From NCBI GenBank assembly GCA_963815455.1, contig CAWFGO010000001.1:608001-672000 (forward strand): a stretch of DNA of 64,000 nt, written 5' to 3'. Source of the stretch: an uncultured Verrucomicrobiae bacterium (GTDB taxonomy: Bacteria > Verrucomicrobiota > Verrucomicrobiia > Chthoniobacterales > UBA10450). The translations under genes were made by a program, and so were the position numbers. Each line of letters starts with the position of its first letter. Positions within the stretch are counted from its first letter, which is position 1. Under the pieces are notes generated by a model. The model saw only the letters and a program-made list of their open reading frames with translations. It had not been told where the DNA came from and ran no database searches. Shown here piece by piece: positions 8,839 through 14,065 of this stretch.

Positions 8839-9303
8839 TCAGCGTCCGGAGATTCTTGGATCGAATCGGTATTCGATGGCCGGCCCGATTTTGATTTTCT
8901 TGAAGTCCGGGTGGTTGGGATTCAGCAGAAAATTCAGTTCGCTGGTGCTGAGCAAACTTGGAACCGCGAGCACGAGCGAACGCATTTGTTCGAGCCATTC
9001 ATCGCCCATTCTACGGGTAGCTGGGATCGGCGGCCGGGCGTTCCAGCCGGCAGGAAGCTTGTTCGCAGAAAGATATTCAGTCAGCTCATCGGGCCATTCG
9101 ACCTGGAATGCGAAATAGTGGTCTGTTGGCAATAGTGGGTGGGTATGGGCGAAAATTTCAAGGGCCGCAAGCGATTCGTGCTGGCTCAAATACACCACCG
9201 GCTTGCCGCGCGAATTCCACCGGCCCGGAGCAAAACGGCTACCTTCTCCGGTGAATGCGCTGGAAACACGCGCTGCGCGAACGATTCGCCACGCCGAAGC
9301 CAT
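8839..9303 (-). CDS. RES-domain toxin (MbcT/ParT-like)
   Basis: GEGSRFAPGRWN..G.PVVYLS.HESLAALE...VPS...E.NFLLNP.HPDF. Confidence 0.9.
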   Translation of the reverse strand: MASAWRIVRAARVSSAFTGEGSRFAPGRWNSRGKPVVYLSQHESLAALEIFAHTHPLLPTDHYFAFQVEWPDELTEYLSANKLPAGWNARPPIPATRRMGDEWLEQMRSLVLAVPSLLSTSELNFLLNPNHPDFKKIKIGPAIEYRFDPRISGR

Positions 9304-9305
9304 TA

Positions 9306-9574
9306 GAACCTATCTCCAAACCCTGAGGGGTTCCGTTGCTGACCGATTTTCTTGCTGGCCAAGGAGTGAGGAGGGAAAATATCCGCAGGGATCTGTGACC
9401 GACGAACAACGAAGGCCAGCGAGAAAAGCGGCGCAACCGGAAAGGCGAGAGTATTTTGAAATGTTCGGCGGTGCTTTTTCCCTATGGCAATCAAAGCTTT
9501 CGCTCCTGGCTCGTGCCTTGTAGTCCAGTCCAAAACAACTCTCGCGGAACCCATCAGAGTTTTGAGACAGGTTC
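9306..9574. mobile_element. 269-bp non-autonomous MITE with 30-bp TIRs and TTA target duplication
   Basis: TIRs 9306-9335 and 9545-9574 match 26/30; TTA at 9303-9305 and 9575-9577; no transposase. Confidence 0.85.
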
Positions 9575-10045
9575 TTAGGAATAGACACTGTAATCAATCC
9601 GACCGAGCAGATCTTCAACTTCTCGCGCGCCGAGCTCCGTTCTTGCAAACTCTAGCGGAACAGCGCCACCCAGTCCGAACTGCGGAAACTTGAGCCACTG
9701 TCGCGCGCGATCCACGGTCCCGAAAAGGTTCGTAGCGTATTCGACGATCCTCGAGAACCGCATTACACGCTCAGATTCTTCCGGAGAAAGACGGCGCTCC
9801 GCTTTTCGACGTTGCAATGTCGATCTGGAAATGGAGAGGTGGCGGGCCAGGGCTTCCATGGGTTCGTCAAGTTCGCTCCGCAAATGCTCCAGCTCACTAA
9901 ACGGCAATCCCTTGTTAATGCGCTCGATGAGTTTGGCCGGATGCAGATTCCTTTTCGATAGCGGAGTTTTCGATCCGTACGCCGTCACCGCTTGTTCCCG
10001 AACAACACTGCTGCGCGCATAGCGCCGCTTTGCTCGCTTGCCCAT
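9575..10045 (-). CDS. Xre/MbcA/ParS antitoxin
   Basis: HTH (LSISRSTLQRRK), LSPEESER, ARQWL..PQFGLGGAVPL..ARTELGAREVEDLLGRI. Confidence 0.92.
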   Translation of the reverse strand: MGKRAKRRYARSSVVREQAVTAYGSKTPLSKRNLHPAKLIERINKGLPFSELEHLRSELDEPMEALARHLSISRSTLQRRKAERRLSPEESERVMRFSRIVEYATNLFGTVDRARQWLKFPQFGLGGAVPLEFARTELGAREVEDLLGRIDYSVYS

Positions 10046-10353
10046 GTGAGCATTTTGAATGATTCAAATGGGCCAGTCAAGTCTTGACCTCTGACTTCTG
10101 ACCTATTTCTAACTCGCGCGCTGGCCGGTGCGAAATCAGCAGCCGCCTTTCACATCGAAAGTTTCGGAAAAGAAGCGTTTCGTCACCGAGTCTTCGCTGA
10201 CCATTTTCCGGCCAGATTTCCTCGAGCCATACCGGAACAGTTGAACCCCCTGCCCTCTGCTCGTTTGCAGTCGCCAATCGCCAATCCGCAGTCTAAAATC
10301 TGACCTCTGACTTCTGATTGAGCTTTGAGCGCGTTCTCGTATCTTTTTTGCAC

Positions 10354-10596
10354 ATGAGCACTGCGCGCGAGATTGAAGAGGCGATCCGTTCTCTTCCGGC
10401 ATCTGAACGCGATAAATTGTTGCATCACCTTCCGGGTCTGTTTCCAGAACTCGCCGGAGATGCAGAATGGGAACGCATTATCAAGGACGAGCGTCCGCGG
10501 CCCGCCCTGAGTCGAGTCCTCGACGAAGCAGAAAGCGCGTTTGGGCGTAATCCTGACTCATTTCCAAAGATGACGGATCAGGATCTCCTTGCGTGA
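10354..10596 (+). CDS. Putative antitoxin
   Basis: MSTAREIEEAIRSL...DAEWERII small acidic protein overlapping the toxin start (GTGA). Confidence 0.7.
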   Translation: MSTAREIEEAIRSLPASERDKLLHHLPGLFPELAGDAEWERIIKDERPRPALSRVLDEAESAFGRNPDSFPKMTDQDLLA

Positions 10597-10859
10597 CCTC
10601 GCGCGGCGCCGAGGAATTTTGGAGACTTTACCGCGGGTTGCCGTCAGAAGCTCGGACTGCGGCGCGCAAGGCATACCTGATATTTTCCCAGAATCCATCC
10701 CATCCAGGGTTGCGATTGGAGCGGCTGAAATCCGATCCGCGCGCGTGGTCGGTGCGAATCACGCGCGACTACCGGGCCGTTGCACTGCGCGTCGATGACG
10801 ATTGGATATGGTTATGGATTGGCACACACAAAGAGTTCGATCGCAGGTTCCCGGTCTAA
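10593..10859 (+). CDS. RelE/ParE-superfamily toxin
   Basis: F...Y..LP...R..A.KAY..F..NP.HPGL.L..L....WSVRITRDYRA...WLWIGTH.EFD. Confidence 0.8.
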   Translation: MTSRGAEEFWRLYRGLPSEARTAARKAYLIFSQNPSHPGLRLERLKSDPRAWSVRITRDYRAVALRVDDDWIWLWIGTHKEFDRRFPV

Positions 10860-10922: not shown

Positions 10923-10994
10923 GTCCCCGTAGTTCAACGGATAGAACAAGGGTTTCCTAAACCTTAGATGTGGGTTCGATTCCCGCCGGGGACG
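10923..10994 (+). tRNA. tRNA-Arg(CCT)
   Basis: GTCCCCGTAGTTCAACGGATAGAACAAGGGTTTCCTAAACCTTAGATGTGGGTTCGATTCCCGCCGGGGACG cloverleaf; anticodon loop TTCCTAA. Confidence 0.95.
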
Positions 10995-11064
10995 CTTCAA
11001 ACGTTCTCGTTGCATGAGACATTTCGGCGACGCTCCAAGCGCGGACTTCGACTGATTCGGCTTC

Positions 11065-11083
11065 ATTCCCGCCGGGGACGCCA
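11065..11083 (+). repeat. Direct repeat of the tRNA-Arg 3' end (att-like)
   Basis: attcccgccggggacgc at 11065-11081 is identical to 10979-10995 and ends in CCA. Confidence 0.8.
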
Positions 11084-11209
11084 GAACTGTTCCCGCCTAG
11101 TTTTTTTGGCTACCCCTTCTTTGGGCGATGCCAAAAAGGGGTTGACTGTTCGCGTCTGGAGCGGACTTTCCGAGATTATTCGTAAGCTATTTGTTTGGCC
11201 AAGGCGTCG

Positions 11210-12070
11210 ATGAGTGTCGCAATAGTAATCTCCGTCCATGACGGTCTCGTAATCGCCGCTGATAGCGCGTCTACGTTAACGATCAGTACGCCAGCTGGTG
11301 TCGGTGTTGCGAACGTCTACAACAACGCGAACAAAATATTCAATTTGATAAAAGGCTCGTCCATAGGCTGCGTAACGTTTGGCAGCGGAAGTATTGGAAA
11401 TGCGTCTATCGGTACGCTGATCAAAGATTTCCGCGAGATCCTAAGCGATGAGGTTGAGGCAAAAAAACAGCTGGGCTTTGAGCGGAAAAAATACACGATG
11501 GAGCAAGTCTCTAAACTCTTATCCGATTTTCTGGGTAAAGAGTGCGACAAGATCAAAGACACCAATCTACGTCAGACAATCAGCCTGGGGTTAATAGTTG
11601 GGGGATATTCAACTGGAGAAAACTTGGGCGAAGTGTGGTCGATAAAGATTGAAAAAGGCCTCGCCGGAGATCCGAAGAAGTTGCGGCAGGCTGATCAAGT
11701 GGGGATCAATTGGGGGGGCGAATCGGAGGCGATCAGCAGGCTTGTTTTGGGCTTCAGTCCGCGCGTCTTTGATGTGCTGGCACAAGTCATGAAGCCGCCA
11801 CAGCCGCCAGCGGACCTAATGGCAAAATTGCATCCCCTTCTCATAGCGCAGCTGAATGCGCCGTTAGTTTTCGCCCCCATGCCGGTACAAGACGCGATCG
11901 AACTCGGCGAGTTTCTTGTCAATTCGGCAATAATGTTTAGTCGGTTTCTCCCGGGCGCTCAAAGTGTTGGTGGGCCGATAGAAGTTGCCGTCATCACAAA
12001 GCATGAGGGATTTAAGTGGATACGGAGAAAATACTATTATAAAAGAGATATTAATCCCGAAGTCGCCTAA
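11210..12070 (+). CDS. Proteasome-beta/Ntn-hydrolase-like protein
   Basis: (M)SVAIVISVHDGLVIAADS, NANKIF, FGSG and C-terminal VGGPIEVAVIT parallel proteasome beta-subunit motifs. Confidence 0.65.
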   Translation: MSVAIVISVHDGLVIAADSASTLTISTPAGVGVANVYNNANKIFNLIKGSSIGCVTFGSGSIGNASIGTLIKDFREILSDEVEAKKQLGFERKKYTMEQVSKLLSDFLGKECDKIKDTNLRQTISLGLIVGGYSTGENLGEVWSIKIEKGLAGDPKKLRQADQVGINWGGESEAISRLVLGFSPRVFDVLAQVMKPPQPPADLMAKLHPLLIAQLNAPLVFAPMPVQDAIELGEFLVNSAIMFSRFLPGAQSVGGPIEVAVITKHEGFKWIRRKYYYKRDINPEVA

Positions 12071-12073
12071 CAT

Positions 12074-12349
12074 ATGTTCGCAATCGACATGTTCACAATT
12101 GATGAGGTAAAAGTTAAGAATCTGATGGACGCTGAGCCGGTTGAATATGGCGTTGCCGATAAGGCTTTGGAATTCCGGATTCCAAGCACGACCGTGTACA
12201 GCGTTGACTTCACTCCAGCAACGAATGCGATCGACGCGGAAAAATACATTTCAGACTTGCGCGAGCGAGTCATCGCGTCTGGCATAGCATTGAAGTCGCC
12301 GCAGGAGCTTGATCGCGAAATCGGCGAGATGCGACGGCGCGGGTTCTAA
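12074..12349 (+). CDS. Small acidic protein, putative antitoxin
   Basis: 91 aa between the Ntn gene and the PIN gene; C-terminal LKSPQELDREIGEMR resembles antitoxin tails. Confidence 0.6.
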   Translation: MFAIDMFTIDEVKVKNLMDAEPVEYGVADKALEFRIPSTTVYSVDFTPATNAIDAEKYISDLRERVIASGIALKSPQELDREIGEMRRRGF

Positions 12350-12366
12350 GGTGTCCAAGCGTCTCG

Positions 12367-12795
12367 TTGACGACAACGTATATTGATTCTGGAGTTCTGA
12401 TTTACGCCGCCAGAGGGACGGATAGTGCTGCAGAATTAGCGCTGCCTTTTCTCAAGTCGCGTGCTCGGCGGTTTGTTACGAGTGATTACGTCCGCTTGGA
12501 AGTCCTGCCAAAAGCAGTGTGGTACAAAAATACGGCAGAAGTGGCGTTCTACGAGGGGTTCTTCAAACTCAATTTCCGGGTCGTGCGGACAGGTCCTGAA
12601 TTGCTCGATCTGGCAATGGAAGAAGCGTGCCGGAATGGCATCGGGGGGATGGACGCGCTTCATGTTGCTGCAGCGGTGTTCGGGGGCGCTGAGGAATTAG
12701 TGACATCCGAACGTGTGACAAAGCCCATTCATCGGACAAAGCTTTTGCGCGTTGTATCAATCTTCGGCGTCGAGACGGAATCGCGAGAAACTTGA
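12367..12795 (+). CDS. PIN-domain (VapC-like) toxin
   Basis: YIDSGVLI, VRLEVL, MDALHVAAA and ELVTSE acidic PIN motifs. Confidence 0.85.
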   Translation: MTTTYIDSGVLIYAARGTDSAAELALPFLKSRARRFVTSDYVRLEVLPKAVWYKNTAEVAFYEGFFKLNFRVVRTGPELLDLAMEEACRNGIGGMDALHVAAAVFGGAEELVTSERVTKPIHRTKLLRVVSIFGVETESRET

Positions 12796-12863: not shown

Positions 12864-13949
12864 CTATACAATCGCCGGTGGCTCCTGCTGCTCTTCCCCG
12901 TAGAATTGTGACCAAGGATAGCCTTGCTGGAAGATTCGTATCATCTGGTCGTTAACGAATCCAAAGTAGAAGGCCTTCCCGAAGCAGGCAGGATTGATAT
13001 CGATGTTCTTTTTCTGCCATGTCCGGGAATGAAATCGCGCAATTACGTAGCTGACGAAATCCGCCAGCTCGAGACACGGCTGAGAACCGGGTTGAACAAA
13101 CTGCGGGTCCGGAATGGTTATGCATCGCGAAAGGAATGCGAACTGAAATGTGTTTCGGTTCTCCAAGTAGAACCTGCTAGCAGTCTTGAACGAGTCGTCT
13201 TGATCAAAAACGAAATTCGGTTGCAGCCCCATGCTCGTGTTCTCGTCGATGAGTTTCATTATCAAGTGAACGAAAGAAAAAGCTCTTGCCGCCTCGAGTG
13301 TTCTTACTCCGAGTTGATGGGTCGCTGATAAGTTAAACACAAAAAGCTCGTTGTTTAATTCCAGCATGAGCTCGCCAAGTGCTTGAACAGCAGCCACGCG
13401 TTTATTCATGGCCCAATGAGCAAACACCGGGTGCCCCTGAGGCTTATTGACCAAATCTACCATGTGGAAGCGCCATTGTTCCGGCATCAGGCTGGGGCAA
13501 AGCCTAATCTTAAGTTCACGCACCGCTTGATTAGTTTTCTTTATAACTACCGGGGATGCTCCGACTAGGGTGTATGTCCAAATAAACGTGCCCGGTGGGA
13601 TTGAGTCCCGGTAGGCTTCATCACCGAAAAGCAATAATTTTCCTTTCACCCCCATGCGGGGAAAGTGAATCATCACGGTTTCCCCGCACGCGGAACATGG
13701 AATGCCTTCGCTAATCTGGACCCACATTTTTTTGTTATGAATTGGATCGAAATCTAGGGGCATTACAGGGTCGTTATGAACTCGTTGTGTAGTCCACGGG
13801 ATCGCAAGGGAAGCACCACAGGCTTGGCAGGCGACGGTCTTTCCGACGAGGTCTAAAGGTAGATATTCTAAATCGTGCAAAGAGTAATGAGCCTCCCCGT
13901 AATGTTGGCCAAACAATTGGCTGTGCCAAGGTCCCGACAGGTCCAGCAT
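12864..13949 (-). CDS. Zn-ribbon + DUF3800-like (RNase H fold) protein
   Basis: CQAC...CSAC N-terminal; FGDEA, FH, VFDQD and LELADFVSY motifs. Confidence 0.65.
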   Translation of the reverse strand: MLDLSGPWHSQLFGQHYGEAHYSLHDLEYLPLDLVGKTVACQACGASLAIPWTTQRVHNDPVMPLDFDPIHNKKMWVQISEGIPCSACGETVMIHFPRMGVKGKLLLFGDEAYRDSIPPGTFIWTYTLVGASPVVIKKTNQAVRELKIRLCPSLMPEQWRFHMVDLVNKPQGHPVFAHWAMNKRVAAVQALGELMLELNNELFVFNLSATHQLGVRTLEAARAFSFVHLIMKLIDENTSMGLQPNFVFDQDDSFKTASRFYLENRNTFQFAFLSRCITIPDPQFVQPGSQPCLELADFVSYVIARFHSRTWQKKNIDINPACFGKAFYFGFVNDQMIRIFQQGYPWSQFYGEEQQEPPAIV

Positions 13950-14029
13950 CGAGCTATTGCTTTTGTGTCACGCGGTTTAAGACAGGAGATGACGCCTAAC
14001 GATTCCTGCAAAAATCCCGTTTTCGTATC

Positions 14030-14065
14030 AGGAAACCTCCGTTCTATCCGTTGAACTACGGGGAC
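14030..14065 (-). pseudogene. 5' half of tRNA-Arg(CCT), truncated right after the anticodon
   Basis: Reverse complement GTCCCCGTAGTTCAACGGATAGAACGGAGGTTTCCT; first 25 nt identical to 10923-10947; no T-arm follows. Confidence 0.75.

Follow-up and report, generated by a model that had tools for sequence, protein, structure and literature searches.

Why would an apparently intact proteasome-like hydrolase be encoded immediately in front of a putative toxin-antitoxin (TA) pair? The question is raised by three co-oriented genes at positions 11210 to 12795 of a 64,000-nucleotide stretch (hereafter the window) of contig CAWFGO010000001.1 from an uncultured Verrucomicrobiae bacterium. Their open reading frames (ORFs) are separated by only 3 and 17 nt, as a preliminary description of this DNA had noted; it read them as a Ser-dependent N-terminal nucleophile (Ntn) protease, a small antitoxin and a PIN toxin, and as a candidate defence system. 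Our analysis confirms the operon and partly supports that interpretation. Based on sequence comparison, the conserved core consists of the hydrolase, a member of the PMI-2 family, and the small ORF behind it, with the PIN nuclease as one of several exchangeable toxins. The module is likely an undescribed protease-controlled toxin switch, a variant of three-component TA systems.

By sequence, the product of gene 1 is assigned to a named family, PMI-2 (Proteasome homolog with Multiple Insertions 2). It aligns over its full length with the family representative WP_137109689.1 of Fuchs et al. (40% identity over 285 columns, E-value 2e-65), which is exactly the homolog found at one of our loci (L077). 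PMI-2 was named by Fuchs, Alva and Lupas (2021; PMC8665760) as a family without known function, broadly spread in bacteria and archaea, and for which they report having found no functionally suggestive genomic context. The protein obtained no assignment in Pfam, NCBIfam or PADLOC and a direct sequence search of the PDB was uninformative; PHROG 5990 matches it at 2.6e-21, and PF00227 matches 6 of 133 homologs. The family comprises 1911 proteins, and 4114 50%-clusters at an E-value of 0.001 or better. An AlphaFold2 model of gene 1 built from the 133 homologs (pLDDT 95.8) retrieves proteasome beta and Anbu in Foldseek (E-values 5e-9 to 7e-8, probability 1.0, TM-score 0.65 by target), so that the proteasome-type Ntn fold proposed beforehand is borne out as a predicted beta-sandwich. 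In the model, H3 and H4 are separated by a helical insertion at about residues 173 to 225 (additional helices at 186-193 and 200-215), as described for PMI-2 (PMC8665760); H1 and H2 are present at 67-88 and 97-113, and there is no helical S3/S4 insertion. Connectase differs on both counts, lacking H1/H2 and carrying a two-helix insertion at S3/S4. Connectase, Anbu, BPH, HslV and the 20S proteasome beta subunit share the Ntn fold and the N-terminal nucleophile, but none has been described with a coupled peptide or toxin.

Ser2 (mature Ser1), D18, K42 and G58 of gene 1 correspond to T1, D17, K33 and G47 of the proteasome, the first three in a register set against the proteasome beta of the same genome and G47 by position only; the same T/S1-D17-K33-G47 set is shared by the PMI-2 of Fuchs et al. 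(PMC8665760). Among the 133 homologs, mature position 1 is Thr in 103 and Ser in 29 (together 132), D18 is invariant, K42 is kept in 132 and G58 in 130. There is no propeptide. The nucleophile emphasized in the preliminary description is thus intact, but according to these alignments Ser is a trait of a subclade and nothing special. All 56 Ser-type loci possess a third gene; independent Ser/toxin pairs number only one or two, and we do not claim Ser1 as an adaptation to toxin control. The motifs quoted from gene 1 are present, although VGGPIEVAVIT (residues 253-263) is followed by 23 more residues and is not the C-terminal end. Beta and alpha subunits of a bacterial 20S proteasome are encoded as a pair in the same genome (G000:C1, about 958.8-960.4 kb, L214), and PMI-2 is therefore not its housekeeping proteasome. 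No AAA+ partner was found near PMI-2 in a scan of neighbouring genes.

To describe the context of the family we used 197 loci, i.e., the best 80 of 144 genome matches, the best 80 of 310 metagenome matches, all 36 viral matches and the window, the genome and metagenome sets being biased toward close, Ser-type relatives. Sufficient downstream DNA and score left 174 loci, or 150 non-redundant ones at 90% identity. A coupled ORF, defined as an ATG ORF of 44-140 amino acids (aa) starting within -35 to +25 nt of the PMI-2 stop, lies behind 137 of these 150 genes, with a Shine-Dalgarno (SD) word in 111. The corresponding figures are 67 of 466 (18 with SD) for other long ORFs of the same loci (91% versus 14%), 581 of 2980 (96 with SD) for random positions and 211 of 1914 (23 with SD) for long ORFs of the window's own genome. 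Several of the 13 remaining loci show TTG, GTG or more distant starts. Codon-position bias indicates that the small ORF is coding in 7 of 7 comparisons, and the gene 2 sequences of the window and L082 differ at 25, 13 and 50 first, second and third codon positions, a third-position excess. These sequence patterns show a small ORF translationally coupled to PMI-2 throughout the family, and gene 2 evolving as expected under purifying selection. Its median length is 78-98 aa in front of five known toxin folds versus 60 aa where it stands alone. The solo peptides are polar and of low complexity, and 23 of 56 share a motif [YF]x[YF]Q (shuffled control: mean 0.4, maximum 4; related peptides do not count as independent). 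More distant PMI relatives, some of them longer, occur in temperate phages and plasmids (L212 in phage LESphi2, L192-L197, L209, L210, L213), several followed by an unannotated ORF of 60-70 aa. Small coupled ORFs were seen in L192, L194, L209, L212 and L213 and not found in L193 and L195-L197; judging from these sequences, coupling may extend to other PMI subfamilies.

What follows the small ORF varies. Third genes were identified by Pfam (77 + 68 ORFs), then by tblastn with confirmed seeds. Among the 150 loci they encode a PIN protein in 56, RelE/ParE in 10, MazF in 6, Fic/Doc in 4, a GNAT protein in 3, a small protein with two transmembrane (TM) segments in 6 and an unassigned product in 4; 59 loci have none and 2 are too short. 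A toxin of known fold (PIN, RelE, MazF, Doc, GNAT) thus stands third in 79 loci, and in the genome collection alone in 34 of 78 (none: 37 of 78). The toxin-bearing loci come from Acidobacteriota, Methanobacteriota, Actinomycetota, Planctomycetota and Armatimonadota as well as from the window's genome. On a FastTree phylogeny built from 137 PMI-2 proteins after omission of 13 incomplete rows, toxin type requires at least 18 changes and toxin presence 12, against 2 for the Ser/Thr state, and a clade of 37 proteins (support 97), mostly from Pseudomonadota, Actinomycetota and prophages, is peptide-only. Judged from this tree, toxin types have been exchanged repeatedly behind PMI-2. The linkage assumed in the preliminary description is conserved, yet the three-gene form is only one version of the module. 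Gene 3 itself matches PF01850 above the cut-off (E-value 9e-7) and each of its acidic residues D7, E45, D96 and E115 recurs in 54-55 of 55 homologs, in agreement with the PIN assignment made earlier. PMI-2-linked PINs group together (2 label changes over 46 rows).

Two further kinds of third gene were noticed. Proteins some 55 aa long, with a pair of hydrophobic segments and the ending GLVxGYWLR, occur in L007, L009, L011, L049, L103, L106 and L206, without Pfam match, always preceded by a gene 2 with a tail of type FGTH[IV]REA; they are candidates for a new membrane toxin/antitoxin pair. Third genes of 175-240 aa with the motifs QGD[IV] and CD[LI] are present in PMI-2 loci (L030, L085, L086) and in loci headed by the NCBIfam family TIGR04255 (L217, L218, L221); the profile comparison between the two groups yields E-values of 0.0045-0.6 only, and there is no Pfam match where scanned.

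Gene 2 (91 aa, 12074-12349, with a possible alternative start at the second ATG, 12089) combines two modules. When 34 close homologs are aligned, a leader marked by three short hydrophobic motifs is seen to precede a helical tail; in 3 of the 34 the leader is kept, the tail differs and a small membrane protein replaces the PIN. We ran profiles of both parts over 75,307 segments and over PIN loci, the latter sampled in 400 genomes of each of two phyla with the two centre genomes excluded and flanks of 1.5 kb. The leader profile matches only behind PMI-2, leaving antitoxins of TIGR04255 loci unmatched; it matches gene 2 of small-TM loci (L011 1e-13, L009 2e-13), three such genes having been among its seeds. 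The tail profile matches antitoxins linked to TIGR04255 (L202 3e-9, L199 5e-6, L201 1e-4) and those of TA pairs free of PMI-2 (L254 3e-9, L255 1e-3, L257 0.015, ribbon-helix-helix (RHH)-type L200 0.028), and in these searches it lies directly before this PIN family wherever the latter occurs. The 800 genomes gave 11 further PIN matches, one with PMI-2 (L253) and ten without it in the flanks: three in which TIGR04255 precedes an extended antitoxin (L199, L201, L202), the others plain or different (RHH-type L200, L254, L255, L257; L256; L203 and L258 unassigned). In L256 a long macro-domain ORF (DarG-like, by eye) directly 5' of the PIN gene carries the tail fused to its C-terminal end. Being common to PMI-2, TIGR04255 and plain PIN loci, the tail is best seen as a PIN antitoxin module onto which different N-termini were grafted, and gene 2 is therefore likely the PIN antitoxin, as the preliminary description had supposed. 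It has no match in Pfam, NCBIfam or PHROG, and its leader is unlike the RHH of L200. As far as the sequences reveal, the PMI-2-linked antitoxins examined have no DNA-binding domain, and leaders follow the PMI-2 subclade or lineage while tails follow the toxin. Several other tails may be likened to known neutralizing ends (MazE-like in L039, Phd-like in L047).

This anatomy recalls toxin-antitoxin-chaperone (TAC) systems such as HigBA-SecB of M. tuberculosis and HigBAC, CmdTAC and MqsRAC of E. coli. As described in 10.1101/2024.02.24.581848 and PMC11618068, these share with our module a dedicated third gene, exchangeable toxin warheads, a location among prophage accessory genes and an antitoxin with a low-complexity extension adjoining the third gene. 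They differ in that the partner here is a predicted proteasome-fold enzyme with intact catalytic residues and not SecB (PMI-2 versus SecB: hhalign probability 0.2; no PF02556 match in the window's genome, G000, 90% complete); in that the extension is N-terminal, as opposed to the C-terminal chaperone addiction domain (ChAD), with the toxin-linked module C-terminal and the order partner-antitoxin-toxin; and in that a toxin-free two-gene form is common, whereas TACs are described there as relying on host ClpXP or aggregation. The module thus works like a TAC but fails two TAC features that were tested: the anatomy is the same, mirrored, with an enzyme as partner. With type II vapBC it shares a PIN toxin with its acidic tetrad and an upstream small gene whose tail recurs in plain pairs (L200, L254, L255, L257), but a PMI-2-specific leader replaces the DNA-binding domain and the gene is coupled to that of a predicted protease.

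A closer parallel is offered by TIGR04255, an NCBIfam family without known function, which heads three-gene operons in L199, L201, L202 and, read by eye, L216-L225. The second gene of these operons is coupled and extended at its N-terminus, and the third resembles a toxin (PIN confirmed; by eye also HEPN-like, RES-like and QGD-motif proteins). Gene order is the same as with PMI-2, and L199, L201 and L202 have the same antitoxin tail and PIN family; the fold is unrelated to that of PMI-2, being predicted as a two-repeat, eight-stranded sheet without convincing PDB match. TIGR04255 is a second undescribed third-partner family for TA systems. A resemblance to SecB was unsupported by the Foldseek top 50, by profile against PDB and by hhalign with 14 housekeeping SecB sequences (probability 0.1), weak evidence since divergent SecBs could be missed.

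PMI-2 modules sit in mobile and prophage accessory sites. Their neighbours include integrases, transposases, endolysins and prophage ends, and at least 7 of the 21 viral copies scanned lie beside endolysin or integrase genes (L162, L165, L176, L181, L182, L183, L190), as do Bacillota genome loci beside lysis or integration genes (L042, L046, L056, L078). The neighbourhood of such genes is the usual slot for prophage accessory genes. No fourth conserved gene emerged among the 115 nearest neighbours scanned, and the spread is patchy, with any PMI-2 match in 7 of 151 relatives.

We are highly confident that a real, modular PMI-2/leader system has been recruited by several toxins. That PMI-2 acts in it as a leader-restrained protease which, once triggered, removes the antitoxin and frees the PIN toxin has in our view slightly less than an even chance of being correct. 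The leader would bind and restrain PMI-2 and the tail would neutralize the toxin, until a trigger, probably a phage protein, displaces the leader and the freed PMI-2 destroys the antitoxin, releasing the toxin. In the toxin-free two-gene form, PMI-2 itself could be the effector held by its peptide. Catalysis is favoured over holding because the active site is invariant and because there are many toxin-free loci in which a holdase would protect nothing. TAC systems are described as sensing phage through displacement of the antitoxin extension from its partner (10.1101/2024.02.24.581848, PMC11618068), and by analogy the module may serve defence against viruses. Several observations weigh against this protease switch. 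Were the protease constitutively active next to its own antitoxin, the cell would die, and the model therefore needs a putative latency step. Counterparts of proteasome S129 and S169 (positions G169 and V253, register by eye) are apparently not conserved, so that catalysis may differ from plain proteolysis. Leaders of distant PMI-2 subclades do not align with each other, and in the 59 toxin-free loci the peptide stands alone. The proposal of a defence system found no echo in PADLOC 2.0, with 0 families for 8 proteins at an E-value of 0.1, and among large neighbours (the largest ORF of each locus, 58 out of 91 with a length of 520 aa or more, E-value 1e-60) known defence genes numbered 3 of 58, a weak linkage without control set. 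The window region is moreover a hotspot of ordinary TA pairs (RES-Xre, ParE-like), which suits selfish addiction equally well. Among the predicted, unvalidated defence genes of the DefensePredictor supplements (PMC13092281) are those for TIGR04255 proteins and for an E. coli protein of 427 aa that is PF00227-like.

A stabilizing, chaperone-like role of PMI-2 is a serious rival, if on balance an unlikely one. As a holdase, in a true TAC analogue, PMI-2 would stabilize an aggregation- or degradation-prone leader, a phage protein would outcompete the leader and host proteases would remove the antitoxin, catalysis being secondary. The same tail and PIN behind TIGR04255, in the same order, with a similar extension and no relation to PMI-2 (hhalign probability 0.1), suggest that the slot needs a binder and not an enzyme, and a polar leader with hydrophobic or aromatic motifs at intervals recalls the ChAD logic as presented in 10.1101/2024.02.24.581848 and PMC11618068. 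Yet the catalytic triad is invariant in toxin-bearing and toxin-free members alike, and a pure holdase would be without a job in the 59 peptide-only loci. Rather improbable is an addiction module stabilizing mobile elements without phage sensing, in which loss of the element or of PMI-2 synthesis would free the toxin; integrases, transposases and prophage ends as neighbours, the patchy spread and the weak defence-island signal agree with it, but a plain two-gene TA already suffices for this purpose (L200, L255, L257), retention of a third gene for 286 aa through many toxin swaps, and also where no toxin follows, implies an additional sensing function, and the antitoxins are without autoregulatory domains.

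We give a similarly slim, if anything slimmer, chance to a connectase-like transpeptidase or peptide-maturation enzyme whose covalent intermediate with the leader, or ligation of it to another protein (tagging), is exploited by the toxin link. Connectase, as described in PMC7980362, is homologous to the proteasome, has Thr1 or Ser1, recognizes a short motif and ligates instead of hydrolysing; the solo peptides of low complexity with one conserved motif and the apparent absence of S129/S169-type residues would fit, while the PMI-2 insertion between H3 and H4, not at the S3/S4 site of connectase (PMC8665760), and the lack of a conserved acceptor gene nearby do not. Chance juxtaposition of an orphan Ntn gene with an ordinary vapBC, conceivable in a TA hotspot and for a PIN family that is without PMI-2 nearby in 10 of its 11 sampled matches, is refuted by locus conservation, coupling counts and third-gene counts and has a practically negligible probability: 56 of 150 loci have the order PMI-2, small ORF, PIN, the linked PINs cluster, and the leader is PMI-2-specific.

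The operon lies in a variable segment of about 3 kb, behind a tRNA-Arg as first described, and bounded by this tRNA with a 17-bp repeat of its 3' end and by an inverted tRNA 5' fragment (Table 1). Its GC content is lower, as had been remarked, but only modestly so (50.6% versus 56.5% in the window and 56.6% in the genome). In the only same-genus genome searched (G401) the flanks are present and there is no DNA match to about 11.0-14.0 kb of the window. No integrase was found within the segment, and a promoter and terminator scan remained at chance level.

Table 1. Features of the operon and of the segment that carries it (window positions).
Feature	Position	Strand	Remarks
Gene 1, PMI-2, predicted proteasome-beta-like Ntn hydrolase	11210-12070	+	286 aa from ATG; model, Foldseek, alignment
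Gene 2 leader, residues 1-52	12074-12229	+	PMI-2-specific segment, predicted PMI-2 docking site
Gene 2 tail, residues 55-91	12236-12349	+	Helical module, predicted toxin-neutralizing domain
Gene 3, PIN (VapC-like) nuclease, predicted RNase toxin	12367-12795	+	142 aa, TTG start
tRNA-Arg(CCT), left border of variable segment (context)	10923-10995	+	215 nt upstream of operon
17-bp direct repeat of tRNA 3' end, att-like scar (context)	11065-11081	+	
Inverted copy of tRNA-Arg 5' part, right border of variable segment (context)	14041-14065	-	25 bp identical
Zn-ribbon/DUF3800-like gene, convergent co-passenger	12864-13949	-	361 aa; DUF3800 E-value 0.039 (weak)

The convergent neighbour, with two CxxC pairs, appears as a passenger of the island; it was not found in the 80 other genome loci and is therefore placed outside the module. 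Upstream of the tRNA, a TA cluster (8839-10859) comprises a RES-Xre pair (8839-9303 and 9575-10045, 270-nt gap) and, at about 10357-10859, a ParE-like toxin accompanied by a small partner. A same-family genome (L206 of G300, 947-2573) has the frame seen in the window (hairpin and inverted tRNA-Arg 5' fragment, window 11085-11143 and 14000-14065, identity 85-88%), but what it encloses there is another Ser-type PMI cassette, more distant, oppositely oriented and beside a Rep-like gene (named by eye). The segment in the window may be what is left of an element of this kind. Another same-family genome (L205 of G483) holds a frameshifted PMI-2 directly 3' of a restriction-like gene.

The protein family PMI-2 was known, and its genomic context, i.e., the coupled ORF, often unannotated, and the toxins, is the new result; both are missing from the main text of PMC8665760. 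Literature searches that covered few subscription papers found no paper tying PMI or proteasome-like proteins to TA systems and TIGR04255 in no main text, and a term search of PMC11980606 and PMC13586616 did not find the PMI-2 module.

These observations provide a testable function, substrate and readout for one of the 22 orphan prokaryotic proteasome homologs lacking a functional clue in PMC8665760. They indicate that control of an extended antitoxin by a third gene is not limited to SecB, extending to a proteasome-fold enzyme and separately to TIGR04255, they predict new antitoxin-toxin pairs (the small two-TM protein, the QGD-motif proteins), and the motif-bearing peptide could naturally inhibit an Ntn protease or be its substrate. 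A more far-reaching and more tentative possibility is that PMI-2 and its coupled peptide form an immune switch, a proteasome-type protease shut by an in-trans inhibitor peptide (a "propeptide" that is detached and lies downstream). In two-gene prophage cassettes this switch would on its own be both sensor and effector, and it would have been joined many times, in bacteria and archaea, to antitoxins whose toxins have at least five known folds or are of a new, small membrane type, yielding protease-gated TA systems. If this is true, a prokaryotic proteasome homolog would for the first time be assigned a role in immunity, and the pair would serve as a plug-in sensor platform, in parallel with TIGR04255 and with TAC systems of the SecB type.
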